From a virus (Duplodnaviria > Caudoviricetes): a stretch of 57,979 bases of DNA. Positions within the stretch are counted from its first letter, which is position 1. The number at the start of each line of letters is the position of its first letter. A model generated the notes under the pieces. The model searched no databases. It was given only the letters and a program-made list of their open reading frames with translations, and was not told where the DNA came from. The DNA lies in IMG/VR virus record IMGVR_UViG_3300029988_000010, positions 1-57,979 of that record; one strand, given 5' to 3'. The translations under genes and the position numbers were made by a program. This document shows, piece by piece, positions 6,181 to 37,713 of the stretch.

Positions 6181-7055
6181 GGAGCACCGCCATTTTTCGT
6201 GGCGCTGACGCTCCCTCCGGTCGTCGCTTGAGCGCGGCCGTTTCGCGCGGCGGCGATGGTTTCGAGGCGGCCGCGGTAGTTCCAGATCATGTGATCGTCG
6301 ACCGAGGTCACGTCGCGATCGAACAGGCCCTCGACGAAGGTCCAGAGGTCGATGGCGATCCGGGCCCAGAGGTTGCGGTCGCGCCGCAGGGCGACGGTGG
6401 GCGCCGCGCCTTTCAGCAGGCGCGGGTCGCCGGTATGGCGGAAGCCGGCCAGCGGCGGCGGCACGCCGGGCACCAGATCCCAATTGTCGACCAGGCGGTA
6501 GTGAGGACACTTGACCAGGGCGTCGAAGGCCTTGGTCGCCACGCGCGGGCTGCCGAAGGTGTAGCAGGCCGCCAGGGTGTCGCGCTCGAGGTCGGCCGCC
6601 GCCAGCTGCGCCAGGGCGCCGCCCAGGCTATGGCCGGTGATGTAGAGGCCCAGGTCCGGCGGCAAGGCGTTGACCCGCGCCCGGCACCAGGCCGCAATAT
6701 CGCCGTAGGCCTGCCAGAAGCCGGCGTGCACCGCGATCCCATCCCGGCCGGGCATGGGGATCAGCCGGGCGTCGAGATCGTAGCCCCAGTCGGCGAGGTC
6801 GGCCGTACCGCGGAATGACAGGATGGCCATCTCCGGCCCGTCGGCCAGGAACACCTGGATGTCGTCGGCGGTCAGGGCGGCGATGCGCCCAAAGCCGCCC
6901 GGCGCGATCATGGTGTTGATCGCCTCCGGGCGGGCATAGGCGTACTGGGCGAACCTGGCCATCAGCAGCGCCGTGCGGTCGCTGTAGGCGGCGCGCCAGG
7001 TCGGGGCCAGACGCGCGTCGTCTGGCCCGAGCGGCGCCATGGCGGGATCGGTCAT
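6177..7055 (-). CDS. Lipase class 3 (alpha/beta hydrolase)
   Basis: FRGT, VHAGF, ITGHSLGGALA, YTFGSPRV, DLVP motifs. Confidence 0.9.
   Translation of the reverse strand: MTDPAMAPLGPDDARLAPTWRAAYSDRTALLMARFAQYAYARPEAINTMIAPGGFGRIAALTADDIQVFLADGPEMAILSFRGTADLADWGYDLDARLIPMPGRDGIAVHAGFWQAYGDIAAWCRARVNALPPDLGLYITGHSLGGALAQLAAADLERDTLAACYTFGSPRVATKAFDALVKCPHYRLVDNWDLVPGVPPPLAGFRHTGDPRLLKGAAPTVALRRDRNLWARIAIDLWTFVEGLFDRDVTSVDDHMIWNYRGRLETIAAARNGRAQATTGGSVSATKNGGAP
6202..6235 (-). repeat. CAAG bulged-hairpin element (divergent), in lipase 3' end
   Basis: GCGCT-CAAGC...GTC-AGCGC followed by CACGAAAAA on the minus strand. Confidence 0.7.
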
Positions 7056-7159
7056 GGCTGCGTCAGCACCATGGACATGACCACCACGAAGGCGATCACG
7101 TTCACCGCGACCAACGCCCAGGCCATCGGCGGCACGCGCCAGCGGTCTCTATCCGTCAT
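7052..7159 (-). CDS. 35-aa single-TM peptide (not in ORF track)
   Basis: MTDRDRWRVPPMAWALVAVNVIAFVVVMSMVLTQP; GGAGGG SD; ATGA overlap with the lipase. Confidence 0.6.
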   Translation of the reverse strand: MTDRDRWRVPPMAWALVAVNVIAFVVVMSMVLTQP

Positions 7160-7201
7160 GCGAAGCCCTCCGCTGGCGTGAAGCCGGCCGCCGACCGCGA
7201 C

Positions 7202-7717
7202 CTATTTGGTCGCGGTCGTGGTGGTGGCCGAGCCGGGCGCGACGCCGTCGCGGACGATGCTGGTCGGCGCGGCGCTCGGCAGCACCGTGTGGTTCAGCGC
7301 GGTGGCGACGACATCGGCAGGATGGGCCGTGGTCGCCGCGGCGGCGAGGATGGCGGCGCAGCCGTTGGCGGCCTCGTCGCCGGTGGCGATGGCGACCGAC
7401 GGCGAGCTGACGCCCGTGCCGGAGCCAACCGACGTCGCCGACGCCGTCGCCTTGCTGTTCAGGTTGGAGAAGGTGTCCGGGCTGTCGGTCTGGCCGCAGG
7501 CTGTCACGGTATCCTGGGTCTGGCCTTGCGGAATGAAGCGCGGCGCGCGGTCGACGGTCACGCTGAACTGGCCGGCGGTGACGCCGCTGTTGGCGTTCAT
7601 GTTGATGGCCACGCCCTGCACCTTGACGGCGTCATGGCTGGTCAGGGTGGTGCAGCCGGACAGCGCGACGGCGCCGATGGCGAGGGCGGCGAGGGCCGCG
7701 ATCGAGGCAAGTTTCAT
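7202..7717 (-). CDS. Lipoprotein
   Basis: Signal peptide with LSGC lipobox; AAGGAG SD. Confidence 0.8.
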   Translation of the reverse strand: MKLASIAALAALAIGAVALSGCTTLTSHDAVKVQGVAINMNANSGVTAGQFSVTVDRAPRFIPQGQTQDTVTACGQTDSPDTFSNLNSKATASATSVGSGTGVSSPSVAIATGDEAANGCAAILAAAATTAHPADVVATALNHTVLPSAAPTSIVRDGVAPGSATTTTATK

Positions 7718-7727
7718 GGTAGGCTCC

Positions 7728-8024
7728 TTAGGGTTGACGGGGTTGAACGGTGAGGCTTGCATTGGGGCTGTGCGCCCGGTCGATGATCGCGACGCTGCCG
7801 TGTTCCGGCAGCACCGCGCAGAACGACGCCGAAGCGCCGATGGTGACCTGGCCGCAGCCGGCGGCCAGGCCGAGGGAGGCCGAGCGGATGCCGGTCGCGT
7901 CGGCCTGTTTCTCGATGTGGACGACGCCCACGCCGACGTAGAGGTAGCTGTGGCCGCCGATCGGGAGGCCGGCGCAGCCTGAGAGCAGGAGGCAGCCGGC
8001 GAGAGCAGGCGAGCGGGTGATCAC
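7728..8024 (-). CDS. Small lipoprotein (o-spanin candidate)
   Basis: LLLSGC lipobox; GTG coupled to the upstream stop. Confidence 0.6.
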   Translation of the reverse strand: MITRSPALAGCLLLSGCAGLPIGGHSYLYVGVGVVHIEKQADATGIRSASLGLAAGCGQVTIGASASFCAVLPEHGSVAIIDRAHSPNASLTVQPRQP

Positions 8025-8230
8025 CGCGATCCGCGCCTGCCGCAGCACGACGCGTCGGGCTCGGGAATCGAAATGCTGATCAGCATTCCGCGAGCCTGTT
8101 TCTCGGCTATCTCCCGCATGCGCTTGGCGTACCGAGCGCACTGGCAATCAGGCCTGCAAAACGGCCTGTCGTCCGGCCGCGTGGCGCGAAGGCGACGCTG
8201 CCTGGCATCGAGGACGATCTGAGAAGTCAT
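8021..8230 (-). CDS. Hypothetical protein
   Basis: Coupled at both ends. Confidence 0.5.
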   Translation of the reverse strand: MTSQIVLDARQRRLRATRPDDRPFCRPDCQCARYAKRMREIAEKQARGMLISISIPEPDASCCGRRGSR

Positions 8231-8694
8231 GTCCCGACCTTCGGACCTTCGCGGCCGTCCATTTCGTACCAGGTGAACTCGCCATCCTCGCCGACCGGGA
8301 AGTGAGCGCCGCACGTGGTGCAGAAGGTGCCGCTGTAGAAGAAGGGGTCGCGGGCATACGTCGCCGCGATCTCGCGGCTCATGGTCGTGATCTTGCCGCA
8401 GGCCTGATGGCGATAGGCGTCGCGGAACGGTCGCACGAAGCCCTTGGACCGTTCGGACTCTGAGAGAACGACGTAGTCTTTCTGTTGACCGTTCGGCTTC
8501 AGCTCGCGGTGATCGTCGGTCACGGGTCCGCCGCCCGCCAGTTCGACCGCGTGACGGTCGACCGGGATGGCTTCAGCCTTCCTCCGCGCATCCTCCCGGT
8601 CGCGCTCACGCTGGGCGCCCGCTTGGCGACGCAGGCTCGCCGCATCCTCTTCAAGGCGCGACGCTTCGGCATCTAGGTCGGCTGCTGATCGCAT
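8227..8694 (-). CDS. Hypothetical phage protein with HxxC/CxxC motifs
   Basis: YRHQACG...TFCTTCGAHFP. Confidence 0.75.
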   Translation of the reverse strand: MRSAADLDAEASRLEEDAASLRRQAGAQRERDREDARRKAEAIPVDRHAVELAGGGPVTDDHRELKPNGQQKDYVVLSESERSKGFVRPFRDAYRHQACGKITTMSREIAATYARDPFFYSGTFCTTCGAHFPVGEDGEFTWYEMDGREGPKVGT

Positions 8695-8696
8695 GG

Positions 8697-9044
8697 TCAG
8701 TCTTTCTTCCTGGTCTCGAAAATGAAGGCGCTCTGGTCGGCGCTGACGGCCATCGACATCAGCCACGCGCCATTGGCGTCGATCTCGGATACTGGGACCT
8801 CGGCTCTGCCGCCCGCGCGGTTCACGAGCACGATCAGCAGCTGCGTGCGCATGCCGTCGAGAAGGTCGGTGAGAACGTGGTTAGGGTCGGCATATTGGGT
8901 CTTGAGGGCCGTCTGGGCGTGGACGTTCGCGCCCTCGAGCGCGGCCAGATCGTTCAGGCACGCCTCGCAAAAGGTCGGGCCGCCGCACCGGGCCTTGTAG
9001 CCGTCGGCGCGGGGATAGACATGGCCATGGCCGGTGAGGTTCAT
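8697..9044 (-). CDS. Hypothetical phage protein
   Basis: GHGHVYPRADGYKARCGGPTFCEAC N-terminal motif. Confidence 0.7.
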   Translation of the reverse strand: MNLTGHGHVYPRADGYKARCGGPTFCEACLNDLAALEGANVHAQTALKTQYADPNHVLTDLLDGMRTQLLIVLVNRAGGRAEVPVSEIDANGAWLMSMAVSADQSAFIFETRKKD

Positions 9045-9703: not shown

Positions 9704-9723
9704 GGATAACCCCATAGACAGGG

Positions 9724-9770
9724 CCCAAGGCCTCAAGCACCCCGGCGAAGGCCGGGGGATAGGCCTTGGG
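9724..9770 (+). repeat. CAAG bulged-hairpin element
   Basis: CCCAAGGCCT-CAAGCA-CCCCGGC GAAG GCCGGGG-GAT-AGGCCTTGGG. Confidence 0.9.
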
Positions 9771-9785
9771 ACAAAAATGTAAGGG

Positions 9786-10403: not shown

Positions 10404-10633
10404 TTGCTGGACGCACCCCGATCGATGATGGCGAACAGGCCAACAATCACTGGGCCGCTCAGGGTCGATATGTCGGCGACCGAAACGCCGCAACCGAGCG
10501 CGACGAGGTCGCCGACGGCGACGATGGCGATGCCATAGAGACAGAGCTTGTTGATCTCGATTGGAACCCAACGCGGTTTGGGCGCGGGCGCCGGGGTCGC
10601 GTCAATGGGCGCCGTGGGAGGCGTCGTCGGCAT
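10400..10633 (-). CDS. Putative holin
   Basis: 77 aa with two hydrophobic segments, coupled to the endolysin. Confidence 0.65.
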   Translation of the reverse strand: MPTTPPTAPIDATPAPAPKPRWVPIEINKLCLYGIAIVAVGDLVALGCGVSVADISTLSGPVIVGLFAIIDRGASSK

Positions 10634-10681
10634 GATTATCTCCGGGGTTAGACGCGCACGCCGTGCGCGAGGGTCACGGCG

Positions 10682-13600
10682 TCAGGCGCGCGCGGTGATG
10701 GTGATCTGGCCGTTGCTGCCGCCGTTGACGGCGATGGTCCCAGCGGCGCCGGTCGTATTGGTCGTGCCGCCCGTGGCCGTGCCGCCGGCGCCCGCCGCCG
10801 AGTTCGTCCCGCCGCCGCCGCCGTTGGCGGTCATCGCGGGGCTGGTGACGGTGGACGCGCCGCCGGCGGTCGCGGCGCCAATGCTTTCGTTGGTTCCGCG
10901 CACGCCCAGGCTCCAGGAAATGACGGTCGTGCCCGGCGTGACGGACAGGCCGGCATAGGTCGCGCTGCCGCCCTGGCCGCCGTCGTGGATGCTATAGGTG
11001 GTGCCGTGGATGAATTCATAGTAACAGCCGCCGTCGGCGCCGCTCAGGACGATGTCGACATGGGTATAGGAGCCGCCGGGCAGCGTGATGCTGCCGGAGC
11101 CGCCCGTGCGCGTCGCCGTAATCACGTCGCCCGGAACCGTCGATCCCGGCGCCGAAACGCTCCCGACCGTCTGGTTGGTGGCGATCACGGTGATCGAGCC
11201 GATCACCCCGTTGACCTGGTATGCCACGCCGACGTCATAGGTTTGCGCCGGGGAGACGGCGGTGATGTCGTAGGACGTGGTGGAGATCGGGTGCAGCCCG
11301 GCGGATGTCCACGCCATCCCGCCTGACACGCGATAGAAAAACGCCACGCCGGTCGCCGAGGGATTGTCCGACGCGCCGGTGATGATCAGCGCGGGGATCG
11401 ACTGCGAGGCGTTCGAGAGCGTGCCGCCGACAGCCGTCCAGGCGCTCCCGCTCGGCGCGGCGGCGCCGAGGGCGGCGGGCGTCATCGTATAGGGGTTGCA
11501 GCTGGCCAGGTCCTGGGCCGCCCGGCCCCACAGGTTGACGCTCTGGAACTTGACATAGACCGTCTGGCCGGCGGTCGGGGCGAGGTAGGGAAACTGGAAG
11601 ATCGCGTCGTCAAGCCGCACGAACGGCGCGCCAACGCTGTGGGCCGCGATCGGCGTATTCTGGAAGCCCCGCCGGATATAGGTCCCGAGCGAATAGCGGC
11701 CAGGATTGGTCAGGGTCGCGGCTTCGTAGCCGATCAGCTCCTGGTCGATCAGGCACAGGGTGCCCCCGTTGTCGACGGTCGCCAGCGAGGCGCCGGCCAG
11801 CTCGCCGCCGCTGGCGCCCAGGTCGACCCCCAGCGTGTGGCTCGTGTCCGGGTCCGTGGCGGTCGCAAGGCTGGTCGTCGCCGCGCCGAAGCGCCCGGGC
11901 GTGTTGATCGTGCCCACCTGCTGGTAGCTGGAACCGTCGACGCTGGTCCAGACGATGCAGCCGCCCCAGTAGGGACCGCCCGACACAGCCGCCCACACCT
12001 CGCCCTGCTGACCGGCCGTCAGCACCGACGGCGGGTTGAACAGGAGCGGCCCGGCGACGGCGCCCTGCGTGGCGGCGTAGTCGCCGATCGCGACACCCTG
12101 GACCAGTTGCGGCTGCGAGATGTAGAGCGCGTTCTCGCCGCTCGCGGTCCAGCTGTGCGCGCCGGCGTCGGACAGCACATCGACCGTCGCATAGAGGGCG
12201 GTCGCGGTCGGGACCTCGACGGTGATCGAAACAAGCCAGATGCCGCTGACCAGGCTTTCCACCATGGTCGCCGACAGGACGTAGGCGGAGCCTAGCACGG
12301 TGCCGGGCGTGAGGATCACGCCGGCGTTGAGATCGACCTCGATATAGCCGCCGTTGACGGCGCCGCTATCGGCCAGCGTGACCCGGGCGTTCTTGCGGAC
12401 ATCCTTCTGCAGGCAGACCCGGAAGGTGTAGTTCAATCCTTCGAAGCTGGCGATCGACTGGCTCAGGCCATGCACGCCCGCGCCGGCCGTCGCGACGATG
12501 GTCGATGCCAGCGACAGGCCGAACTGGTCGGTCGTGGAATTGGCGGTGATCGAGGCGTTGGTCTTGGTCCAGGCCGCGTTCGCCGGGCTGTCGGACCAGA
12601 GCAGCAGGTTGGCCTCGACACTGCCCGGGTCGACCAGCTGGTTGGCCAGATAGCCGGTTCCGGTCTGCATGCTGAACAGCGGCGTATTGCCGATGCCGGC
12701 CAGATAATCCTCGCAGATGAAGCTCAGGCCGTACTTCTCGTCCTCGTCGATCTGGACGATCCGCACCGGATAACCATCGAGCCCGAGTCCGGGGTCGGTG
12801 AGTTCGACCAGGTCGCCCGGCTCCAGCAGCGCATACATCCAGCCGAGCTTGAATTTGTACTGGGCCCGGACATAGAGGGTTCGCTGCAGGTAGAGCTGCG
12901 CCGCGATCGCCGCGACGTCGGGATCGCAGATCACATGGACCGTGGTCGGGTCCTGCCGGCGTTCGCCATATTGGTCGACGTTCGCGGCGTCCGAGGCCAG
13001 GGCGATGGCCATGTTGTACTGATTTGTGCGGTCCAGATATTCGAGCTGGACGACGTTATAGGCGTCGGTCTGGTCCTCGATGTCGACCTCGAGCACCGGC
13101 GCGCCGGGACTGTCCTGCACAAAGTCGTCGTCGAGCGCATAGACCGCCGCGCTCGGCGGGGTGTAGGTCTTGCCGTTGCCGGTGAGCGGCGTGTCGCCGT
13201 AGGGGATGAACTTCAGCAGGCCTTCCGACCAGACGCAGGTCGAGTTGGTGGCCAGCAGCACCTCGGTCAGAAAGTCCGACGCGCTGCGCTCCTGGTCGAT
13301 CAACGGCGACAGCACCAGGCCGGCGGCGAGGCAATAGTCCTGATACTGGGCCATCGACCCGAGCAGCCCGCTGGACGGCCACAGCGGCACGCCCGTGCGC
13401 GCGTTCTGCAAAAAGTCGGCGACGACCAGCGAGGGATCGACGTCATAGGCCCCGGACGAGGTCGCGATCGGGCCGTAGCCCGTGGTGCGGATGACCTCGA
13501 AACTGTGGTTCGGCGGCGCCGCGTCGCCATCGAGGGCGTAGTTGGAGGCGTAGACGATCGCCAGGCCCGAATAGCCGATGGCGTGGTCGGGGTGGGCGGC

Positions 13601-14050
13601 GGTCAGATAGGTCCAGACCGCCTGGCCGACGTCGCCGGTGTTCATGTTCAGCTTGGCCTGGCTCAGCGCATAGGTCGCGCCGTGGGGGCCGCTCAGGCCG
13701 CCGCCGGTCGTGGGAATGCCCTGGCCGCTCGTCGGGCCGCCGCCGTTGGTGTAGATGTTGGCGTCGACATAGACCACGTCGATGCCGTCGATCGGCCCCT
13801 CGCACACCGCCATGATGATGGTGGCGGAATAGCTGTAGCCGGTTGTCGCGCCGCCGCCCTTGCCGCCGCCCTTGCCGCCGTTCTGGGCCTTGGACGTGAA
13901 GTCCAGATAGTCCATCAGGTTGCAGGCGCAGCGGAAGGTGCCCCAGCCGAGCGGGATCTGCAGGCCCATTGACGAGGTCTGGACCTGGACGCCGGCGTAG
14001 CGGGTGATCGCGTTCGAGGCTGTCCTACCGGCCATGGAGAAGCCCACCAT
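10682..14050 (-). CDS. Tail tip / host-specificity protein (GTA-like)
   Basis: Follows DUF2163 and NlpC genes; LEPGDLV motif; Gly-rich C-terminus; start may be 14035. Confidence 0.85.
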   Translation of the reverse strand: MVGFSMAGRTASNAITRYAGVQVQTSSMGLQIPLGWGTFRCACNLMDYLDFTSKAQNGGKGGGKGGGATTGYSYSATIIMAVCEGPIDGIDVVYVDANIYTNGGGPTSGQGIPTTGGGLSGPHGATYALSQAKLNMNTGDVGQAVWTYLTAAHPDHAIGYSGLAIVYASNYALDGDAAPPNHSFEVIRTTGYGPIATSSGAYDVDPSLVVADFLQNARTGVPLWPSSGLLGSMAQYQDYCLAAGLVLSPLIDQERSASDFLTEVLLATNSTCVWSEGLLKFIPYGDTPLTGNGKTYTPPSAAVYALDDDFVQDSPGAPVLEVDIEDQTDAYNVVQLEYLDRTNQYNMAIALASDAANVDQYGERRQDPTTVHVICDPDVAAIAAQLYLQRTLYVRAQYKFKLGWMYALLEPGDLVELTDPGLGLDGYPVRIVQIDEDEKYGLSFICEDYLAGIGNTPLFSMQTGTGYLANQLVDPGSVEANLLLWSDSPANAAWTKTNASITANSTTDQFGLSLASTIVATAGAGVHGLSQSIASFEGLNYTFRVCLQKDVRKNARVTLADSGAVNGGYIEVDLNAGVILTPGTVLGSAYVLSATMVESLVSGIWLVSITVEVPTATALYATVDVLSDAGAHSWTASGENALYISQPQLVQGVAIGDYAATQGAVAGPLLFNPPSVLTAGQQGEVWAAVSGGPYWGGCIVWTSVDGSSYQQVGTINTPGRFGAATTSLATATDPDTSHTLGVDLGASGGELAGASLATVDNGGTLCLIDQELIGYEAATLTNPGRYSLGTYIRRGFQNTPIAAHSVGAPFVRLDDAIFQFPYLAPTAGQTVYVKFQSVNLWGRAAQDLASCNPYTMTPAALGAAAPSGSAWTAVGGTLSNASQSIPALIITGASDNPSATGVAFFYRVSGGMAWTSAGLHPISTTSYDITAVSPAQTYDVGVAYQVNGVIGSITVIATNQTVGSVSAPGSTVPGDVITATRTGGSGSITLPGGSYTHVDIVLSGADGGCYYEFIHGTTYSIHDGGQGGSATYAGLSVTPGTTVISWSLGVRGTNESIGAATAGGASTVTSPAMTANGGGGGTNSAAGAGGTATGGTTNTTGAAGTIAVNGGSNGQITITARA

Positions 14051-14059
14051 AGACAGGGG

Positions 14060-14146
14060 CCCAGGCCCTCAAGTAGCGAAGCGGTAGGGCCTGGGACAAA
14101 AACACAGGGGCCCAAGGCCTCAAGCAGCGAAGCGGTAGGCCTTGGG
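14060..14146 (+). repeat. Two tandem CAAG bulged-hairpin elements
   Basis: 14060-14095 and 14111-14146, each 10-bp stem-CAAG(T/C)A-GCGAAGC-GGT-stem, then ACAAAAA. Confidence 0.95.
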
Positions 14147-19630: not shown

Positions 19631-19650
19631 GGTGAGTTCCCCGCGCGGGT

Positions 19651-19950
19651 TCAGTCCGTCACGTCCGGCAGCGGGCTTTCCCACTCGCCATCGTCGTCAT
19701 CATCGCCACCGGCGCCTGAGGCGCACCCGGTGCGCTCGGGCGGGGCCCACCACTTCATGCCGCGGAAGTAGTCGGCGACCAGCTGGTCGGCCGGCGGTCG
19801 TTCCGCCAGCTGCCATTCCATCTCTTCGTAGAGCGGCCAGGTCAGGTTGGCCCACCAATAGTCCCGGGTGTGGCCGAAGTAGCGGCAGGCGTTGAGAACC
19901 ACGCCCTCCCAGTTTGGGTCGGGGACTAGGTCGCCCCGGTCGCTTCCCCC
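19651..19950 (-). CDS. Tail assembly chaperone extension (GT-like) via -1 frameshift
   Basis: GGGGGAA at 19944-19950; the -1 frame is open to TGA at 19651. Confidence 0.75.
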   Translation of the reverse strand, partial: GGSDRGDLVPDPNWEGVVLNACRYFGHTRDYWWANLTWPLYEEMEWQLAERPPADQLVADYFRGMKWWAPPERTGCASGAGGDDDDDGEWESPLPDVTD

Positions 19951-20834: not shown

Positions 20835-20842
20835 ATTTTCCT

Positions 20843-20962
20843 GCCCTATCGCTCGCTGGCGCTCGCTGCTTGAGGGCGTATTTGCGCGCCCTAGCGACTG
20901 CTTGCGCTCGCTGCTTGAGAGCGCATGGCGCGGACTCAAGCAGCGAAGCGGTAGTCCGCGCC
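20843..20962. repeat. Cluster of three CAAG elements (two on -, one on +)
   Basis: 20843-20877, 20884-20924 and 20927-20962. Confidence 0.9.
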
Positions 20963-22112: not shown

Positions 22113-22150
22113 GCGCTCAAGCAGCGCGCACGGCGTGCGCGCGTTAGCGC
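22113..22150 (+). repeat. CAAG element whose inner hairpin is the 17-bp palindrome
   Basis: GCGCT-CAAGCA-GCGCGCACGGCGTGCGCGC-GTT-AGCGC. Confidence 0.9.
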
Positions 22151-22804: not shown

Positions 22805-22816
22805 AACAGTCCTCGC

Positions 22817-22846
22817 GCACGACCGCGCGTCGCGCTGCTTGAGTGC
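22817..22846 (-). repeat. CAAG element
   Basis: GCACT-CAAGCA-GCGCG A CGCGC-GGT-CGTGC on the minus strand. Confidence 0.8.
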
Positions 22847-23352
22847 TAGGCGTTGGCCTTCGCCACGGCCGCCTCGACGACGGCGTTGAGCCGGGCGGTG
22901 ATCTCCGGCTGCATCGCCGCCAGCGGCCCGCGCTCGAAGGCGCGTTCGGTGATATCGACGGTGCGCGAATAGGCCTCGACCAGCACGGTCTGCGGCGCCG
23001 AGAGCTTCAGCGACCAGTAATGGTCGAGCTTCATCGCGTGCGACCGGACCTTGGTCGGACGATGCGCGCCGTATTCTTCCGCCGCCGCCTTGGCGAAGTC
23101 CTGCGAGCCCTTGGCGCCCTCGATGTCGACGTAGCCGGTGATCCGGGTCGGATCGGTGAACAGCCGCAGCCGCTCCGAGCTGCGCAGCTTGCCGGTCAGG
23201 CTGGGCGTCGCGGCCTCGACGCGGGCGAGCAGCTCCGCGGAGAGCTGGTCGATCGCCGTCTTCAGGTCGTCGTAAAGGGCGTCGGGGAACTGCTCGAACC
23301 GTAGCCCGACTTGGCGGATGCCAGTGACGTCAATGTGGATCAGATCGGTCAT
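22846..23352 (-). CDS. HK97 gp10-like neck/tail completion protein
   Basis: TPSLTGKLRSS and EYG motifs. Confidence 0.7.
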   Translation of the reverse strand: MTDLIHIDVTGIRQVGLRFEQFPDALYDDLKTAIDQLSAELLARVEAATPSLTGKLRSSERLRLFTDPTRITGYVDIEGAKGSQDFAKAAAEEYGAHRPTKVRSHAMKLDHYWSLKLSAPQTVLVEAYSRTVDITERAFERGPLAAMQPEITARLNAVVEAAVAKANA

Positions 23353-23358
23353 ACTTAC

Positions 23359-23428
23359 GTTGCCCTATCGCTCGCATTCGCTCGCTGCTTGAGGGCGACC
23401 GGCTCAGGCAGGCCGAAGGCCGGTCAGG
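23359..23428. repeat. CAAG element (-, 23359-23399) plus degenerate inverted copy (+, about 23401-23428)
   Basis: GTCGCCCT-CAAGCA-GCGAGC GAAT GCGAGC-GAT-AGGGCAAC; T-CAGGCA-GGCC GAA GGCC-GGT. Confidence 0.85.
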
Positions 23429-29130: not shown

Positions 29131-29157
29131 GTCGGGGAAGTTCCTCTGTCGGGAGGC

Positions 29158-29259
29158 GCGCTCAAGCAGCGCGAAGCGCGGTAGCGCGGGGATGCGCTCA
29201 AGCAGCGCGAAGCGCGGTAGCGCGGGGATGCGCTCAAGCAGCGCGAAGCGCGGTAGCGC
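29158..29259 (+). repeat. Three tandem CAAG elements (36-bp period)
   Basis: GCGCTCAAGCAGCGCGAAGCGCGGTAGCGC three times, separated by GGGGAT. Confidence 0.95.
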
Positions 29260-29349
29260 AAAAAGGATGGGGGTCGATGGGGACCGGACCGACACCCGGT
29301 CCCCATCTGGTCAGCGCTGACGTCTGGTCCGGGTGTCGGCCCGGATGGT

Positions 29350-29616: not shown

Positions 29617-29758
29617 TCCCTTCTCCCTGAGGGAGAAGGAGGGGCCCGCGCCCGTAGGGCGTGGGAGGTTGAGGGGTTACGGACGGTCGGGGTTAGCCCG
29701 GCGGCGCCGTAACCCCTCAACCGGCCCTTTGGGCCACCGTCTCCCAATGGGAGAGGGA
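29617..29758. repeat. Composite palindromic repeat (RIME/REP-like)
   Basis: CTCCC/GGGAG terminal hairpins; perfect 16-bp inverted repeat 29667-29682/29707-29722. Confidence 0.8.
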
Positions 29759-30273: not shown

Positions 30274-30290
30274 GGGAAGGGTCCTTTCTT

Positions 30291-30395
30291 GCGCTACCGC
30301 GCGCCTGGGGCGCGCAAGTTGAGCGCGGATGGGGTTGGAAAAGGAGGGCGAACCAGGGGCCCAAGCCCTCAAGCAGCGAAGCGATAGGGCTTGGG
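30291..30395. repeat. Inverted pair of CAAG elements
   Basis: 30291-30326 (-, CAACTT variant) and 30360-30395 (+). Confidence 0.9.
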
Positions 30396-30406: not shown

Positions 30407-31720
30407 TTACGGGCTTTTCGCGGCGACCAGCGGACCGGCGGCGGTCGTCGAGCCGAGGTCGTGGTTGTTGATGTCGAAGCGCTCGGTGCCCAGCAGGCCG
30501 ATCTGGTCGTTCTCGAAGTAGCGGTGATCGGACCGACGGATGGTCACGCCGCGGCGCTCGCCCATGGCCGAGGACTTGGCCAGGTCGCCGAAGTAGAACA
30601 TCGGAAGGCCCGAGCCGGGGGTGACGATCGGCAGCTGTTGACTGATCACGACCGGGAAGCCGAGCAGGCGCGGCGTCAGCGGATCGGCCAGGGTGAGGGT
30701 GGTGTTGCCGCCGGCCTTGGCCAGGACGGTGCCGACAGCGGAATAGAACATCTGCTGGCTCATGTACCACTTGGCGCTCTTGATCGCGTATTGCGGCAGC
30801 ACGCCCATGACGCCGGTGAAGTCGGCCACCGTCAGCGAGGTCAGCGATGCCGAGGAGGTCTGGTACTGGCCAGCGGTATGAGTACCGTCGCCGAACAGGG
30901 TGCTCAGCCCGCGAATGCCGCCGTAGGACGATGTGCCGTCCCCACTGAAGCCGGAGGCGTCCTCCTTGGCCGCGAAGGCGTAGGCGATTTCTCCCACCAG
31001 CCAGTCGGCGATCGAGACGACCGCATCCTCGGCGATTTCGTTGGACATCCGGGTCAGGGCGCCCAGCTTCTTGGCGGTCAGGTTGATGGCGTCCCACTGG
31101 GCCTGGGACTCGGTCGTCGCCTGGTTTTCACCAGTGAAGTAGGCGGTCAGGCCACCGACGCGGCGGGGCCAGTTCAGGGTGTCGCTGCCCATCGGGATGA
31201 CGGTGCATTCCTTGCGGAACACGCCGAATTCTTCGCGAAGCACGATGATGTTGGCGAGCAGCTCTTCCGGAACCAGGAAGCCACCGGCGCTATCGACGCC
31301 TTCGCCCTGAGCCTTGGTCAGCGGCACGCCGCGCGATTTGCACCAGTCGATCGCCTCGGCGTTGCCGAAGATCGTCGCCTTGAACCACATGCCGGCGGTG
31401 TAGGCCTGGTCGACGGCGCGGACGGTCTGGCCGCCGATCTCGCGGTCCTTGAAGTTCTTCAAGGAGCCGTACAGCTTGTGGGCGCTGGCGGGCGCCGAGG
31501 GGGTCAGCCGGTCCTGGCCCGCCACCGGGGTGGCGAGGCTGGCGGCGACCTTTTCGGCCTCCTCGACGCGGCCGAGCTGCAGCTGCAGATCGGCGATCTT
31601 CTCCTTCAGGGCGTCATAGACGTCCTGCTTGAACCCATCGGCTTCGGACTTGCCGGCCATGGACTCCAGTTCGTCCGCGGCCTTGCTCAGCTGCTGCCGC
31701 AGTTCGTGCTTCTTCGCCAT
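30407..31720 (-). CDS. Major capsid protein, HK97 fold, with delta domain
   Basis: GGFLVPEE, LTAKKL, GDG, LLGFPV, YFGD, ERFD. Confidence 0.95.
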   Translation of the reverse strand: MAKKHELRQQLSKAADELESMAGKSEADGFKQDVYDALKEKIADLQLQLGRVEEAEKVAASLATPVAGQDRLTPSAPASAHKLYGSLKNFKDREIGGQTVRAVDQAYTAGMWFKATIFGNAEAIDWCKSRGVPLTKAQGEGVDSAGGFLVPEELLANIIVLREEFGVFRKECTVIPMGSDTLNWPRRVGGLTAYFTGENQATTESQAQWDAINLTAKKLGALTRMSNEIAEDAVVSIADWLVGEIAYAFAAKEDASGFSGDGTSSYGGIRGLSTLFGDGTHTAGQYQTSSASLTSLTVADFTGVMGVLPQYAIKSAKWYMSQQMFYSAVGTVLAKAGGNTTLTLADPLTPRLLGFPVVISQQLPIVTPGSGLPMFYFGDLAKSSAMGERRGVTIRRSDHRYFENDQIGLLGTERFDINNHDLGSTTAAGPLVAAKSP

Positions 31721-31784: not shown

Positions 31785-31845
31785 GTGTTGGGGGCAGAGC
31801 GACGCGCGGGGCGGCGCTCTGATCTTGGTTGTCGGGACCTGAGTT

Positions 31846-31883
31846 GCACTACCGCGCGAACGCGGACCGCACCGCTTGAGCGC
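31846..31883 (-). repeat. CAAG element (divergent)
   Basis: GCGCT-CAAGCG...GC-GGT-AGTGC right after the protease stop. Confidence 0.75.
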
Positions 31884-31884
31884 G

Positions 31885-33324
31885 TCAGTCGTTGCTCGGC
31901 AGCGAGGCCTTGAGCTCGCGGGCTTCTTTCAGCCGGCGCTGCTCGGGGGTCATGTCGTCGGGAATGACCGTGGCTTCCGGCTCGGCGGGGAGGCTGTCGG
32001 ACGGCGCCGGTTCGTCGGGGGGCATTTCCTCGTCGTCGGCGAGGATGGACTTGATGCACTCTGCCGCGGCGGCGTGGCTGTCCATCGCCTGCTGGTGCAG
32101 GTCCAGGGCCTTCACCAGCGTTTCCTTCGTCGCCGCCGAAATGCGACGGCCGGCCTTGGCGCGGAGCGCGGCTTTGGCGGCGGGGCTCATCCGCGCCTCA
32201 TAGTGGTCGAGAACGGTGCGCACGCTGGTCTTGACGCCGTCGGGAATGTCCGTATCCGGCAGCCGCGAGGCGGCGGCGCGCAGGCCGCCAGCGTCAGCCT
32301 TTAGCACGTCGCCGTGCAGATGGGCGAAGGGCAGCTTGTAGGACCCGCGCAGCTTCGGCGCGGATGCGTCGTAGGCCAGGAAACCCTTGCGGGCGATGGC
32401 CGGGTCGAAATCAGCGCCCCCGGCATGCTCAAAGATCGACGCGGCGGCGGCAGGACCATCCCAGCTGTCGCCGGACTCATCCAGCGGCAGATCCGTGGCC
32501 GCGGCGCACTTCCAGTCCGCAGCGTCGTCGCCCGCGGCGCGGAGCACGAAGCGGTCGTCGATGACCAGGGCCTCGGTTGGGTCCTGAAGCCAGCGCTTCA
32601 GTCCATCGCGGGCCCGTTCGGCCGCTTCCGCGCTGATAGTCCCCTTGGCCTGCAGATAATAGCGCGTCGGCGCCGTTCCCTTGGCCTGGGTGCGAAGGGC
32701 TTCCAGATCCTTGCGGGGCAGGAACACGGTATCGCCGTTGTCCAGCACCTTTTCCGCCCATTCCACCAGCGGCCAGGTGTCGACGCCCAGGCTGCGCGCC
32801 TCGCCAAGGGCGTTGGGGTTGCAGGGCACCGGGCAGACCGAGATTTCCAGCAGGGTCTGTTTCTTGAAGTCGATGCCGTAGGGGCGGTTCTTGTCGGCGC
32901 TGAAGGCCCATTCCTTCGGCAGGAAGCCGACGGAGACGGCGTTCATGAACTTGCCCTTCAGCAGCCGGTAGATGGTGTCGGCGAAGGGGTAGATGTCGGC
33001 GCTGGCGAATTCGATGTCGCCGACCAGCTTGTCGCCTTCCACGGCCACGTAGGGGCTCCGGCCGATCGGCGGCTCCCAGCTCATGTGGCTGAACAGCGCG
33101 ACCGGGTTGCGCTTGAAGAGGCTGGTGTCCCAGCCCTTGGGATCGATGCTGTCGTCGGAGTGGTCGACAGTGGCGTCGCTGAAGACGAAGCGCATGGTGC
33201 GGGCGTCTTCAGCGCCCTGCTGCTGGGGTTCAGTCGTGGAGAACCGGAACACGGTCCCATCCGGACGTTGGCCATCCTTGGCCGCGGCGCGGAAGTCGTC
33301 CGTGGAGAGGAGCTTCATGGGCAT
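31885..33324 (-). CDS. HK97-type prohead protease with C-terminal extension
   Basis: NPVALFSH, AVSVGF, LLEISVCPVPCNPNA. Confidence 0.9.
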   Translation of the reverse strand: MPMKLLSTDDFRAAAKDGQRPDGTVFRFSTTEPQQQGAEDARTMRFVFSDATVDHSDDSIDPKGWDTSLFKRNPVALFSHMSWEPPIGRSPYVAVEGDKLVGDIEFASADIYPFADTIYRLLKGKFMNAVSVGFLPKEWAFSADKNRPYGIDFKKQTLLEISVCPVPCNPNALGEARSLGVDTWPLVEWAEKVLDNGDTVFLPRKDLEALRTQAKGTAPTRYYLQAKGTISAEAAERARDGLKRWLQDPTEALVIDDRFVLRAAGDDAADWKCAAATDLPLDESGDSWDGPAAAASIFEHAGGADFDPAIARKGFLAYDASAPKLRGSYKLPFAHLHGDVLKADAGGLRAAASRLPDTDIPDGVKTSVRTVLDHYEARMSPAAKAALRAKAGRRISAATKETLVKALDLHQQAMDSHAAAAECIKSILADDEEMPPDEPAPSDSLPAEPEATVIPDDMTPEQRRLKEARELKASLPSND

Positions 33325-33345
33325 GGCGACCCTTATCCTTACGTT

Positions 33346-33438
33346 GCGCTACCGCGCGCCAGAGGCGCGCTGCTTGAGCGCGTTTTACGTTGCGCTACCG
33401 CGCGCACGGCGTGCGCGGCGTGCGCGGCGCCTAAGCGC
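33346..33438 (-). repeat. Two tandem CAAG elements (second degenerate, contains the 17-mer)
   Basis: Both end GCGGTAGCGCAACGTAA on the minus strand. Confidence 0.9.
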
Positions 33439-33440
33439 GG

Positions 33441-34487
33441 TTAGGGCGCGACCAGGACGGCGAGGCTGCCGTTGTTGGTGTTGTCGCCCATGTCGTGGAT
33501 GACGGCGTCGAAACGCTCGGTGGCGAGGATCGCGAGCTGGTCCTCGATCATATAGCGGTCCTCGCTGCGGGCGATGGTCAGGCCGCGGCGCTGGCCGAGG
33601 ACGGCGGCGGCGTACATGTCGCCGAAAGCCATCATCGGCAGCCCGGAAGTCACCGTGGCGGAGAGCGGGAGCGCCTGGGTCAACACGACCGGGAAGCCGT
33701 TGAAATAGGGGGTGGCGATGTTGTCGAGCGGACCGGTGTAAAGGTAGCCGCCGGCATTCGCGAGACGGATCACGGTCTGGGCGAAGGCCGTGACACTCAT
33801 GAACCAGGCCGCGCGGGGGATGGCCGAGGCGCGGACGCCTTCCACGAGCCTGGCCATGTCGCCGGCCTGCAGGGAGCCGAACGCGTCCGCGCTCGCCGCC
33901 TGCCGGGCTTGGCCGTGAGCGCCGTCGTTGGCGATCGTTCCGATGCCCTTCATGCCGCCATACGCCGAGGTGCCGTCGCCGCTGAAGGCGCATTGATCCT
34001 CTTTCACGGCCAACGCCCAAGCCAGTTCGTTGGCGACGTAGTCGACCATGTCGACGATCGAGTCCTCGGCCAGCTCGTTCGAAAGGCGCACCAGGGCGCC
34101 AAGCTTCTTCGCGGTGAGCTTGACCTCGTCCATATTGGTGTTGGTGTTCGCCGCGGGGCTGTTTTCGGCGAAGAAGAAGGCCTGGGCCGCGCCGATGCGG
34201 CGCGGGAAAGACGACGAGTCCGAGCCCATCGGCCACTTACAGGCGCGCCGCCGGAAGGCGCCGTAGCTGTCGCGCAAGTCGAGGATGGCGTTTTCGAGCG
34301 CCTCGGGGACCAGGAAGCCGCCGCCGGAGCCAATGCCTTCGGACGCGGCCTTGACGATCGCCACGCCCTTCTTGTCGCACCAGTCGCGCGAGGCCTTACG
34401 GCCGTAGACCGTGGCCAACAGCCATTTGCCGGCACGCTCGTAGCGCGCCTCGACATCCGGACCGAAGCCTGGAAATGCTCGCCTCAT
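33441..34487 (-). CDS. Second capsid-family protein (MCP paralog without delta domain)
   Basis: GGFLVPE, PMGSD, LTAKKLGAL, FSGDGTS.YGG, ERFD shared with the MCP. Confidence 0.9.
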   Translation of the reverse strand: MRRAFPGFGPDVEARYERAGKWLLATVYGRKASRDWCDKKGVAIVKAASEGIGSGGGFLVPEALENAILDLRDSYGAFRRRACKWPMGSDSSSFPRRIGAAQAFFFAENSPAANTNTNMDEVKLTAKKLGALVRLSNELAEDSIVDMVDYVANELAWALAVKEDQCAFSGDGTSAYGGMKGIGTIANDGAHGQARQAASADAFGSLQAGDMARLVEGVRASAIPRAAWFMSVTAFAQTVIRLANAGGYLYTGPLDNIATPYFNGFPVVLTQALPLSATVTSGLPMMAFGDMYAAAVLGQRRGLTIARSEDRYMIEDQLAILATERFDAVIHDMGDNTNNGSLAVLVAP

Positions 34488-34514
34488 TGGGAATTTCCTC
34501 GCATTGGGCGGGAC

Positions 34515-35840
34515 TCAGTCGTCGGGTGCGGTGTCGGGATCGAGCGGGCCAGCGCCGGGATCACCCAGACCGCCCGGCGCGGGTTGGCCGGTGATATCGC
34601 TGCCCGGGCCCGTCTCGGCGCCGGCGGGCTCGAACCCGAGCGGCGCCATGTTGGTCGGCTGGTAGAGCTTGTCGCCGTCCGGATCGTCCGGCAGGCCCTC
34701 GGCGCGGCGCGCCTCGTTCGGCTTGAGGAACATGCCGGTGATGCCGGCGCGGTAGGCCTGGTAGCGGGTCATCAGCGACGCGCGGATCAGGCCGGCGACG
34801 TCGAACTCGACGAACACGCCGTCCGCCGCCAGGTCGAAGGTCTGCGACAGCTTGGCTTCCCAGCGGCCGAGGTCACTGGAAACGACGTCGTTGGCGTATT
34901 CCTGGTTCATCTCGGGGATCGACGAACCCGCGCCGCGCTCGACGATGCCCAGCTTGTGCATCGGCATGCGGTAGAGGCGGGCGATTTCCTGGACCTGGAA
35001 GCCGCGGGCGGCGATCAGCTCGGCCTCGGCGGCCGTCATGCCGATCGGGACCCACTTCAGGCCCTGTTCCAGCACCGCCGTGTCGCCGGCGTTGCGCAGA
35101 CCCTGCTTGCGGGTCTTCCAGTCCTGGGACAGGCGCTCAGCGGCGTCCTTGGTCAGCTTCTGGTCGGTCGTCAGCACCCCGCCGAGGTTTGTGCTGTTGG
35201 CGGAGAGGCGACCCGACAGCTCCTGTTGCGACAGCGCCAGGCCGATCGCTTCGCGGGCGAGACCGATGCGCGAGGCGCCGTAGAGCGAGGTGTCGAGCGC
35301 CATCCAGCGCAGGTGAAAGATGTCCTCCGACGGGATCATCATCGGCATGGACGCCAGCACGGCGGTCTCATGCAGCCCGCGCCGCGCGACCTGGTAGAAG
35401 ACCTGGCCGCCGGGCGCTTCGTAGATCCACACCCGGTCGGGATTGATCGGCACCAGCGCCGTCGGCCGGCCGCGACCGTCGCGCAGGATCACCGCATAAG
35501 CATTCCCGCGCAGCAGGATGGAGACCTGCATCTGCTCGACGAATTCGAAGCGGCTCTGGTAGTCGTTCGGCTGCTGGAGCAGGCGCTCAATCGGATGGTC
35601 GGCGACAATCCGGCGGCCGCCGTTCGGCAACGACGCGTAGACGTGGACCGGAAGCTTGGCGACGTCCTCCGCGCGGATGGAAACGCAGGCCTGGACCGTC
35701 GAGACCTGCAGCGAGCTCAGCTGGGTGACCGACATGCCGCCCGAGCTGGACGACCGGGGACCATATTCCGCCCACCAGTCGTCGATCGACATGGCGCTCT
35801 TGCCGCGGATCGCGCTGATGACGCTCGACCAGTAACCCAT
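34515..35840 (-). CDS. Portal protein, HK97 family
   Basis: LLRGNAY, IFHLR, VLEQG, EIARLY, PNEARR. Confidence 0.95.
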   Translation of the reverse strand: MGYWSSVISAIRGKSAMSIDDWWAEYGPRSSSSGGMSVTQLSSLQVSTVQACVSIRAEDVAKLPVHVYASLPNGGRRIVADHPIERLLQQPNDYQSRFEFVEQMQVSILLRGNAYAVILRDGRGRPTALVPINPDRVWIYEAPGGQVFYQVARRGLHETAVLASMPMMIPSEDIFHLRWMALDTSLYGASRIGLAREAIGLALSQQELSGRLSANSTNLGGVLTTDQKLTKDAAERLSQDWKTRKQGLRNAGDTAVLEQGLKWVPIGMTAAEAELIAARGFQVQEIARLYRMPMHKLGIVERGAGSSIPEMNQEYANDVVSSDLGRWEAKLSQTFDLAADGVFVEFDVAGLIRASLMTRYQAYRAGITGMFLKPNEARRAEGLPDDPDGDKLYQPTNMAPLGFEPAGAETGPGSDITGQPAPGGLGDPGAGPLDPDTAPDD

Positions 35841-35853
35841 CGCGCGCGACCTC

Positions 35854-37683
35854 TTAGACAAAAAGAAGGCCGTGCTCCTCGTAGGCGGAACGGACCGCTT
35901 CGGGGTTGGTGGCCATGATGGTCACGGCGTTGAACAGGGCCATCGCGGGGTCGATCTTGGCGTCGCCGGCGTTCTGCTTGGTCGCGCGGATCGCCGTGGC
36001 GGTCGGCTCGATTTTCAAATTGCCGATGCACCAGTCCATCAGCGCCTGGTCGGCGTGGCGGAGCGTGCCGTTGGTCAGCTTCCGCTCGGCGGTTTTCAGC
36101 GCGTTCATCATGGCGTAGCCCTGGGCGGCGCCAATGACGTAGTCGCGACCGGTTTCCTTGTTTTCCTCGACGATGCCGACCTCGGCCAGGGCGTCGATCA
36201 GCTCGCCGAGCCCGGCGGGGTCAACCGCGACGCAACAGAGGATGCCGGCGTCGCGGATCTGGACAATCAGGTCGATAATCTCGGCCAGGTCGATGTTTTC
36301 GATGACACCGTCGAGTTCGTCGAGATCGGTGGACAGTTCGCCGCCAACTTCAGGCGCGCCCTGGAAGGTCAGCTCGCCGGCCCGTTCAAAATCCTCAAGA
36401 AGGCTGGCGATGGTCTGGCGCCGCGACAGCACGATCCGGTGCGCCCAGGCGTGCGACCAGGATAGCCAGCGCTTGACGCGTTTCTTTGTCCCAAGGCCTA
36501 TCGCTTCGCCGCTTGAAACGTCCGGCGCCGCGCCAGCGGGGGCATCGGCAGCGATCTCGACCTCGATCGACTCGCGGCCGAGGACGGTCATGCCGTAGAG
36601 GTCGTCGCGGCCGCCGCCGTCCAGGCCGACCACGACCACTTCGCAGCGATCGAGGATGTCGGCCAGGGTGAGCCGCACCTTGGTGCGCTTCCAGAAATCG
36701 GCGCCGACCCAGTTGTCCGACCGGGCGCCCATGCCCGGCTCCACGTTCAGATGCTTGGCGAAGAAGCCCACCAGGGACTTGGAGCCTTCGCGCTGGGCCT
36801 TGGCGTATTCGTCGAGCAGGAATTCCTTGTCGACCGACAGGCCGAGGTTGGGGTTGGTGACGTAGAAGTTCTCGGGCTTCTTGTAGGCGCCCGATTTGAT
36901 CATGTCCTCCGGGAATTCGTAGAGGACGCCGAGGGAGCGTGGGGCGATCAGCTTGCCGTCGCGGATGTCGCGGAACCGGCGTAGCCAGTCGAGGAAGACG
37001 CCCGCCGGCGGGTCGTCGCTCTGGGTTGAGAGGGCGATCACGAAGCCTTCGGGGCGGCTGGCCAAGCCGCCGGTCGCTTCGCGGAGCATGTTGCGGGCGT
37101 TCGCGCGCCTTCCGAACAGCCACAACTCATCGATCAGGACGAATGAGGCCTTCTTGCCTGAGACGGTCTCGGAATCGGCGGCGACAACCTGGAGGGTCGC
37201 CTCGGTGATGCGGTGGGTGATCGTCCGGGTGTGGTCCTGGACCCGTAGAAGGTTCCGCAACTCCGGGTCCTCGGCGATCATATCCTTTGCCGGGCCGAAG
37301 CTGTTGTTCGCGACCTCTTTCGTCGGCGCCAGGATCAGCAGCTCGGCCGAGTGGCGCCAGTTGCGGATCAGGGCCGTCAGCATGATGCCGGCGGCGATGG
37401 TCGATTTGGAATTCTTCTTGCTGATCAGCAGGAAGAACTCGCGGATCAGGCGCCGCGCCGCCGTGGCGTCGTAGGCGCCGAAAATGGCGGCGACGAACTC
37501 GAAGACGAAGTCCTCGCAGGCGTCGCCGAAGGAGGGCTTGCCCGGCGCATCGACGATCTTCAGCGACTTGAAGACGTTGAGCGCGGCGGCGGCCTCGTCC
37601 GGAAAGATCGGCGGCGGGATCAGCGACTGCCGGGCGACGATCCGCTCGCGCCAGTCGAGGCAGGCGGTCGAGTGGGTTTGCAT
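35854..37683 (-). CDS. terL: Terminase large subunit
   Basis: ISKKNSKST Walker A, LIDE Walker B, GLDGG and KIDP nuclease motifs. Confidence 0.95.
   Translation of the reverse strand: MQTHSTACLDWRERIVARQSLIPPPIFPDEAAAALNVFKSLKIVDAPGKPSFGDACEDFVFEFVAAIFGAYDATAARRLIREFFLLISKKNSKSTIAAGIMLTALIRNWRHSAELLILAPTKEVANNSFGPAKDMIAEDPELRNLLRVQDHTRTITHRITEATLQVVAADSETVSGKKASFVLIDELWLFGRRANARNMLREATGGLASRPEGFVIALSTQSDDPPAGVFLDWLRRFRDIRDGKLIAPRSLGVLYEFPEDMIKSGAYKKPENFYVTNPNLGLSVDKEFLLDEYAKAQREGSKSLVGFFAKHLNVEPGMGARSDNWVGADFWKRTKVRLTLADILDRCEVVVVGLDGGGRDDLYGMTVLGRESIEVEIAADAPAGAAPDVSSGEAIGLGTKKRVKRWLSWSHAWAHRIVLSRRQTIASLLEDFERAGELTFQGAPEVGGELSTDLDELDGVIENIDLAEIIDLIVQIRDAGILCCVAVDPAGLGELIDALAEVGIVEENKETGRDYVIGAAQGYAMMNALKTAERKLTNGTLRHADQALMDWCIGNLKIEPTATAIRATKQNAGDAKIDPAMALFNAVTIMATNPEAVRSAYEEHGLLFV
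36485..36516 (-). repeat. Partial CAAG element in frame inside terL
   Basis: T-CAAGCG-GCGAAGC-GAT-AGGCCTTGGG-ACAAA on the minus strand. Confidence 0.85.
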
Positions 37684-37687
37684 CAGC

Positions 37688-37713
37688 GGCCTCAAGCAGC
37701 GAAGCGACGGGCC
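37688..37713 (+). repeat. CAAG element between terS and terL
   Basis: GGCCT-CAAGCA-GCGAAGC-GAC-GGGCC. Confidence 0.9.

Follow-up and report, generated by a model that had tools for sequence, protein, structure and literature searches.

Short interspersed repeats of the REP, BIME and REPIN type, known from gamma- and betaproteobacteria, are imperfect palindromes of about 30-40 nt that lie in extragenic spacers as tens of dispersed copies, variable in number, single or clustered, and co-transcribed with their neighbours. By definition, a conserved GTAG immediately precedes the palindrome on its 5' side. In phage T7, bulged hairpins processed by RNase III punctuate the polycistronic operon. The window analysed in this study, the complete IMG/VR virus record IMGVR_UViG_3300029988_000010 (57,979 bp, approximately 67% G+C), contains a bulged hairpin element that shares features with both systems and is repeated along the late operon. 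An earlier note on this DNA had counted about 21 copies and had offered two explanations for them, a REP/BIME-like mobile mini-element or a phage control signal. Our analysis moderately favours the view that the hairpins are copies of an apparently undescribed REP-like interspersed repeat family of some bacteria, which has accumulated in one temperate siphovirus; the late operon of this phage has either been heavily colonised by the element or is the place where the element was amplified.

The layout proposed for the element, an outer stem followed by T, CAAGCA, an inner hairpin, G(G/A/T)T, A and the returning outer stem, is present as claimed. Moreover, compensatory outer stems and interchangeable inner hairpins were seen among the window copies that were recovered by a strict scan (TCAAGCA with at most one mismatch, GNTA, and an outer stem of at least 4 bp). 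The proposal that the element is selected for its structure gained support from the covariation of the outer stem in 145 copies, all from genomes other than the window (alignment A1). In A1 the outer stem comprises 5 bp, the next two positions outward are unpaired, and three of the stem pairs covary (CG 76/GC 41/UA 20, CG 85/GC 50 and GC 104/CG 16). This covariation was reached by none of 500 shuffles, and slid controls gave much lower values. The C-G and T-A pairs adjoining the core are fixed, and the inner part of the alignment is invariant because the search was built that way. The five bases past the stem are A in 46-61% and T in 5-10% of cases. The unit can thus be described as an outer stem of at least 5 bp of free sequence, the conserved core T-CAAGCA-(mini-hairpin, usually GCGAAGC)-G(G/A)T-A, and an A-rich tail of about 8-10 nt. 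In bacterial copies the inner hairpin is nearly always GCGAAGC, and matches with longer inserts (3/25 and 6/17) did not exceed the reversed-pattern control. As regards the strand under selection, we counted 13 G-T versus 8 A-C mismatches, and the fold energies were similar for RNA and DNA as well as for the sense and antisense strands; copies with long stems have stable predicted folds (for copy 14111, z was -3.9 as RNA and -3.7 as DNA).

Two structural candidates were rejected. An intrinsic terminator does not fit the tail, which is A-rich and T-poor, and the opposite strand has its T run before the hairpin, not after it. The attC sites of integrons have the consensus boxes RYYYAAC ... GTTRRRY at the hairpin base; in the element the stem base has no fixed sequence, and conservation lies in TCAAGCA and GRTAG. 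Rfam 15 covariance models gave no match at the gathering score in the window, and Rfam searches with cut-offs of E<=10 or E<=1 on copies from the phage and arrays from hosts returned nothing relevant. In the main texts of the literature covered, the core string was absent, and the matches listed on intergenic repeats of phages and Caulobacter or on REP elements in the host genera included nothing relevant. Accordingly, the statement that the hairpin belongs to no named family holds for Rfam and for the texts covered.

The strict scan recovered 12 copies in the window, at 9724, 14060, 14111, 20927, 22113, 29157, 29194, 29229 and 30360 on the + strand and at 20843, 23362 and 33346 on the - strand, where 200 first-order Markov simulations averaged 0.09 copies and never exceeded 2. 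A covariance model built on A1 (R1), run with filters off, detected 14 copies at E<0.05 and 4 further ones at E 0.05-0.3 (36490-, 22108+, 6197- and 20899-), which together span 6,197-37,718. The feature is therefore real and far above chance, but the solid copies are fewer than the earlier count of about 21. Among the sites counted previously, those at 31846 and 33392 are degenerate by eye and are missed by R1, and the outer stem at 23401 is unpaired. The copies are as follows.

6197..6240, - strand: weak, doubtful copy; R1 13.9 bits, E 0.11.
9724..9770, + strand: antisense copy; 9-bp outer stem (CCCAAGGCC), GATA, inner hairpin of 18 nt; strict scan; R1 18.3 bits, E 0.0071.
14060..14095, + strand: antisense copy with a 9-bp stem (CCCAGGCCC), the CAAGTA variant and inner GCGAAGC; strict scan; R1 36.1 bits, E 8e-08.
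14111..14146, + strand: antisense copy in tandem with 14060, with a 9-bp stem (CCCAAGGCC) and inner GCGAAGC; strict scan; R1 43.9 bits, E 5.7e-10.
20838..20882, - strand: sense copy immediately ahead of the AGGAAAAT-ATG of the next gene; 4-bp stem (GCCC) and GATA; strict scan; R1 40.3 bits, E 5.6e-09.
20899..20929, - strand: degenerate copy, placed at 20884 in the earlier note; weak, R1 12.6 bits, E 0.26.
20927..20962, + strand: antisense copy just past a stop codon, with a 9-bp stem (GGCGCGGAC) and inner GCGAAGC; strict scan; R1 43.3 bits, E 8.4e-10.
22113..22150, + strand: antisense copy; 4-bp stem (GCGC), GTTA, inner hairpin of 19 nt; strict scan; R1 partial match only, 14.6 bits, E 0.074.
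22812..22851, - strand: sense copy in which GGTC replaces GGTA, upstream of GAGGA...ATG; R1 16.5 bits, E 0.022.
23357..23401, - strand: sense copy ahead of a start codon; 4-bp stem (GCCC) and GATA; strict scan; R1 34.9 bits, E 1.7e-07.
29153..29264, + strand: three tandem antisense copies with a 36-nt period, GCGC stems and inner GCGCGAAGCGC; strict scan; R1 36.2, 26.0 and 39.8 bits.
30286..30331, - strand: sense copy in which TCAACTT replaces TCAAGCA, upstream of AAGAAAGGA...ATG; R1 16.7 bits, E 0.019.
30360..30395, + strand: antisense copy approximately 12 nt past the stop codon of the capsid gene, with a 9-bp stem (CCCAAGCCC); strict scan; R1 43.2 bits, E 8.8e-10.
31846..31883, - strand: degenerate sense copy with CAAGCG and one G-T stem pair; by eye only, missed by R1 even at E<=10.
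33341..33386, - strand: sense copy ahead of the protease gene; GCGC stems, inner hairpin of 17 nt; strict scan; R1 36.4 bits, E 6.9e-08.
33392..33438, - strand: degenerate sense copy with TTAGGCG; by eye only.
36490..36525, - strand: truncated copy without the left outer stem, within the reading frame of the terminase large subunit; R1 15.2 bits, E 0.051.
37683..37718, + strand: copy with GGCC stems in which GACG replaces GGTA, at the start of the terminase large-subunit gene; R1 28.1 bits, E 1.4e-05.

Nine of the 14 solid copies lie on the + strand, antisense to the genes, and the other five are sense. The sense copies are located directly upstream of Shine-Dalgarno-like sequences and start codons, and the long-stem antisense copies immediately past stop codons. 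An identical stretch of 12 bases, start codon included, comes next on the - strand after the antisense copies at 9724 and 14060, and at two junctions one antisense and one sense copy are combined. The earlier note had cautioned that scant intergenic space in the early operons may partly explain why the copies are confined to the late region. However, the called spacer amounts to 1.6 kb in the late region versus 4.3 kb in the remaining genome (from crude GC3-based gene calls), and a lack of room elsewhere thus cannot account for the confinement. Contigs of four peat metagenome runs covering 19.5-38.5 kb contained no form with a cleanly excised copy.

Outside the window, the 20-nt core CTCAAG(C/T)AGCGAAGCG(G/A)TAG is also present. 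The 19-mer TCAAGCAGCGAAGCGRTAG was found in 81 stretches from IMG/VR and at least 120 from bacteria, and the bacterial record titles among the matches listed include Erythrobacter, Porphyrobacter, Asticcacaulis, Caulobacter, Brevundimonas, several Rhodobacterales and some Actinomycetota metagenome-assembled genomes (MAGs). Five whole bacterial genomes contained 17, 15, 1, 33 and 7 copies (at most 2 mismatches), with none in the reversed-pattern controls, and a Caulobacteraceae MAG from peat contained 35 (control 1), with 0-2 in five other genomes searched alongside. Some Caulobacterales and Sphingomonadales chromosomes carry 15-35 dispersed copies. The distribution is patchy: at least one copy was present in 11 of 301 genomes (an even sample of one class), and the peat MAG and the five genomes searched alongside, all reached via loci titled Caulobacter, Brevundimonas or Caulobacteraceae, had 0, 1, 1, 35, 1 and 2. 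Among 40 other element-bearing virus records searched, 26 are classed as proviruses. The long-stem 36-mer had no match in genome contigs. Since the element is also scattered over bacterial chromosomes, a phage-specific control signal is improbable, and our tests gave no support for a dedicated control signal in this phage.

We examined 24 chromosomal loci, and at all of them the copies were intergenic. They lie in the spacers of ordinary operons, singly or as direct arrays with a period of 33-40 nt. Names assigned by reading translations, all of housekeeping genes, place them at sucA-sucB and flgB-flgC and upstream of thiC, infB, RNase R, folB, dapB and holC, and one copy lies between the stop codon of glnA, named in the same way, and its terminator. 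Neighbours identified by Pfam are the housekeeping genes rpsA and aroA, a Bax1-I protein and an alpha-amylase, and a tRNA-Ser starts 14 nt downstream of one copy. Between co-directional genes the ratio of sense to antisense copies was 26:7 at bacterial loci and 26:11 at viral loci, and where over-long open reading frame calls cross a copy it was 36:3 and 37:9, respectively. A leaderless-promoter signal was considered and rejected: the spacing between TAG and the start codon varies widely (3-37 nt), roughly half of the copies lack any start within 40 nt, and copies also occur in 3' untranslated regions. In the Asticcacaulis-like genomes G311 and G306 (L330:525-626, L336 and L338-L340) the core lies inside a larger repeat unit of about 90 nt with CCTCCCC...GGGGAGG inverted-repeat flanks. 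Near an element array of the peat Caulobacteraceae MAG, at L348:5318-5457, there is a match to the Caulobacter small RNA CC3664 below the gathering score (50.2 bits, E 9.7e-06).

On one complete chromosome the orientation of the copies follows the genes and not the replichore or position. This bears on the possibility that the element is a single-stranded-DNA signal, either a primase entry site or a hairpin promoter of the G4/N4 type, at which the GCGAAGC mini-hairpin keeps SSB off and marks the site. Mini-hairpins of the GCGAAGC type do mark the G4-type priming sites and RSF1010 ssiA (available part of PMC13037366), the N4 P1 hairpin promoter has this mini-hairpin at its tip (available part of PMC13434306), and the phage copies occur in both orientations. 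In each of these systems, as in the element, such a mini-hairpin tips a longer hairpin. However, the G4 origin, ssiA and the N4 early promoters are one to three sites per replicon that are read by a dedicated primase or virion polymerase, whereas the element occurs as tens of dispersed copies, and a search of 30 phage proteins revealed neither a primase nor a giant virion RNA polymerase. Moreover, some host copies, e.g., the one between the glnA stop codon and its terminator, stand where priming or a promoter would make no sense. Together with the gene-bound orientation on the complete chromosome, this makes such a signal highly improbable.

The sucA-sucB spacer illustrates how copies come and go. 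Among nine related genomes, G004 has two copies in this spacer, G308 has one and seven have none, and wherever the element is present, the conserved ribosome-binding site follows directly. G004 and G308 share a copy of the CAAGCC variant, and the extra copy in G004 has the consensus. In a pair of genomes with flanks 92-95% identical, an 89-nt core-containing segment is filled in one and empty in the other at one site, and another site differs by one 36-nt tandem unit. The 89-nt difference corresponds to one of the repeat units of about 90 nt seen in the Asticcacaulis-like genomes. Orthologous cores differ at 0/40, 1/20, 2/20 and 3/20 positions; this drift implies little constraint on any individual copy.

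The capsid relatives of the phage allowed a comparison on the viral side. Thirty-seven viral loci encode a capsid protein 67-86% identical to the major capsid protein (MCP) of the window, and in none of the 35 examined was the element found at either capsid junction; one relative has a variant hairpin at the same junction. R1 searches over 38 MCP-relative loci (294 kb) gave a single weak match (E 0.02). This near absence indicates that the accumulation is specific to this phage lineage.

These observations also bear on the suggestion that the late polycistronic mRNA is processed at the hairpins, much as RNase III acts between T7 genes, with the internal loop directing cleavage and leaving hairpin-protected ends. 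Bulged hairpins do lie at the junctions of a long phage operon, and the long-stem copies have stable predicted folds. However, T7 uses one orientation and has no host-wide family, whereas the element occurs in both orientations within one operon, has a conserved loop and is common to host chromosomes, where it is also found in 3' untranslated regions, in 5' leaders and upstream of a tRNA. RNase III is not known to require a conserved loop sequence, and the MCP relatives manage without the element. We consider a processing role improbable.

Of the two explanations in the earlier note, the REP/BIME-like mini-element fits best, given the dispersal in chromosomes, the filled and empty sites and the near absence from MCP relatives, but the family stands outside the classical REP/RAYT system. 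It shares with REP elements the presence of a GTAG and the organisation as tens of dispersed, short, extragenic imperfect palindromes, single or clustered and variable in number, which would be transcribed along with their neighbours. However, the GTAG of the element lies inside the 3' side of the hairpin, where its A and G make up the final two stem pairs, and not outside the palindrome as in REP. In addition, its arrays, in hosts at least, are mostly direct and not inverted pairs, it reaches 15-35 copies and not hundreds, its unit includes an A-rich tail, and no RAYT gene consistently accompanies it. The Y1 (RAYT-type) transposase PF01797 was detected in 2/5 copy-rich genomes and not in the phage, in genome searches of limited sensitivity, and the genes flanked by inverted copies are housekeeping genes. 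PNPase-type tails are A-rich in composition, and retroposition with the A-rich tail as such a tail was considered; it gained no support, as reverse transcriptase is no commoner in copy-rich (1/6) than in copy-poor (2/6) genomes.

Several findings weigh against a REP-like repeat family. The search for a mobilising enzyme was negative for both the Y1 transposase and reverse transcriptase, and no clear target-site duplication was apparent at the single clean filled/empty pair. All phage copies lie inside the late operon although other regions have more spacer, a confinement that random colonisation does not predict. With approximately one copy every 4 kb, the phage has some 30 times the copy density of the richest genomes checked, and only 5/14 solid phage copies are sense, as opposed to 70-86% elsewhere. 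Furthermore, the 20-nt core is nearly identical across alphaproteobacterial orders and Actinomycetota-binned contigs (among the matches listed), which REP-like elements do not usually show and which may point to a conserved reader.

The phage gene at 38814-39383 (- strand), just upstream of the late operon, specifies a specialised NusG paralog (Pfam NusG 2.2e-08) that also matches NCBIfam UpxY (1.1e-12) and RfaH (1.1e-08), both below cut-off; its best solved relative is RfaH (2e-07), and 14 homologues were found among 5.8 billion proteins. In the available part of PMC5995543, the ops12 and ops9 sequences place the GCGGTAG of the element at ops positions 2-8, including the C3:G8 pair and the bases G5 and T6 that are read by RfaH; the same part gives K10, H20, R23, Q24 and R73 as the ops-reading residues of RfaH and 10-11 nt as the size of the transcription bubble. 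The element could be a loading or pause site for a NusG-family factor, at which the 3' half of the coding strand, GCGGTAG, would act like the ops of RfaH and would repeatedly recruit the phage paralog, rendering RNA polymerase termination-resistant over 32 kb. GCGGTAG also occurs in the E. coli waaQ leader, and GCGAAGC is a DNA mini-hairpin of exceptional stability (available part of PMC13037366). In copies with GCGC stems the likeness extends to the CG that comes next. Like ops/JUMPStart, the element favours the coding strand in hosts, is found in leaders and within operons, and could form a small hairpin in the non-template strand. The phage copies are confined to the operon downstream of the paralog gene, and the MCP relatives lack the paralog (absent from 8/8 by a protein query whose positive control was detected) and are essentially without elements.

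However, several observations speak against this reading. When the ops sequence GGCGGTAGnnTG was compared with the non-template strand, positions 2-8 matched in 109/145 copies, but 36/145 had A at the G5 position. The pause bases T11 and G12 have no counterpart, as the element continues with variable stem and then A. The covarying outer stem spans about 28 nt and exceeds the 10-11-nt bubble (available part of PMC5995543), and the element has an additional mini-hairpin that ops lacks. The five ops-reading residues of RfaH align with non-conserved a, a, e, a and e in the paralog family, and 9/14 solid phage copies are antisense to the operon. The element does not co-occur with relatives of the paralog either: 34 viral loci with such relatives (24-44% identity, 502 kb) gave one match at E 0.03 and none better, and the phage protein as query found no match in three of four copy-rich bacterial genomes and a weak one in the fourth. 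Viral contigs contained no close relative of the paralog (single-protein query), and an RfaH-type reader with the ops-contact residues was not found together with the element. Genome searches with Pfam NusG missed the paralog of the window itself, and their zeros therefore say nothing about divergent paralogs. In the face of these mismatches and of the drift of orthologous cores, we regard a loading site for a NusG-family factor as unlikely.

A broader version of this idea would make the core a widespread elongation signal, a cousin of ops, whose GCGAAGC mini-hairpin and C-GGTA-G loop are read on paused polymerase by alphaproteobacterial NusG-family factors, with the phage pairing about 12 sites with its own paralog for the 32-kb late operon. 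We give this version only a slight chance; if true, it would make this phage the first to carry an RfaH-like antitermination system whose reloading sites are distributed. Two observations on these genes may be added. The frame at 38302-38787 (- strand), between the paralog and the terminase genes, has an HNH-endonuclease-like Cys/His motif read from sequence alone. In the only bacterial genome with a second NusG-like gene (G002:C1:15927-17016; L216/L288), an element copy lies about 290 nt past the 3' end of that gene on the opposite strand.

Returning to the REP-like repeat family, we propose that the hairpins are copies of a short interspersed repeat family of some bacteria, of which the phage has accumulated 14-18 at gene junctions of the late operon. 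The unit would be transcribed as a stable stem-loop. Judging from positions relative to stops and starts, sense copies directly upstream of a ribosome-binding site may offer their A-rich tail as an unstructured leader, and a role in the RNA may likewise be assigned to the antisense long-stem copies just past stop codons. Together, the copies could insulate cistrons and stabilise segments of the polycistronic mRNA, like REP elements, and the conserved core could be the part needed for the element's own spread or for its recognition by some partner. The apparently undescribed family of tiny structured repeats extends over several alphaproteobacterial orders, Actinomycetota-binned contigs and their prophages, and combines clear covariation and a transcription-strand bias with no known mobilising enzyme. 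For motif discovery in viral contigs it advises caution, as what looks like a striking "phage regulatory motif" can turn out to be a repeat of host type that has accumulated in a single prophage. The approximately 30-fold enrichment in the late operon, the ops-like core and the rare adjacent phage NusG paralog bear on the transcription of long operons and on the spread of repeats without RAYT.

From 6.2 to about 49 kb, GC3 frame analysis placed every gene on the - strand. The PHROG and Pfam gene content, of which the main genes are given below, identifies the phage as a temperate siphovirus whose late operon covers about 32 kb of this strand.

3494-5137: serine integrase (Pfam).
10682-14050, - strand: tail protein (PHROG match).
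16730-19684, - strand: tape measure (PHROG match).
30407-31720, - strand: major capsid protein (PHROG match, phrog_10).
31885-33324, - strand: protease (PHROG match).
34515-35861, - strand: portal (PHROG match).
35854-37695, - strand: large terminase (PHROG match).

The host is probably a member of the Caulobacteraceae in peat: a capsid relative of 82% identity sits in a MAG labelled Caulobacteraceae, and phage DNA is present in peat metagenome runs, the only kind of sequencing run listed for it, with no RNA run among them. INPHARED contained no near phage, and the terminase large-subunit query gave no match in the copy-rich peat MAG G367. No tRNA was found in the window. Pfam also detects an SNF2 helicase, a Pol III beta clamp (at 42778-43950) and DNA methylases. 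The 213-nt spacer that includes 29665-29725 holds a near-perfect long hairpin of about 58 nt, which is unrelated to the element and gave only spurious microRNA-like Rfam matches. Two genes match phrog_10 (major head protein), at 33441-34487 (-) and 30407-31720 (-), with the protease gene in between. The genome further encodes a large ParB-N-domain protein at 52700-54799 (+), and the two large DNA methylase proteins, of the N6/N4 and C5 types, are located at 43922-45634 (-) and 55113-57077 (+).

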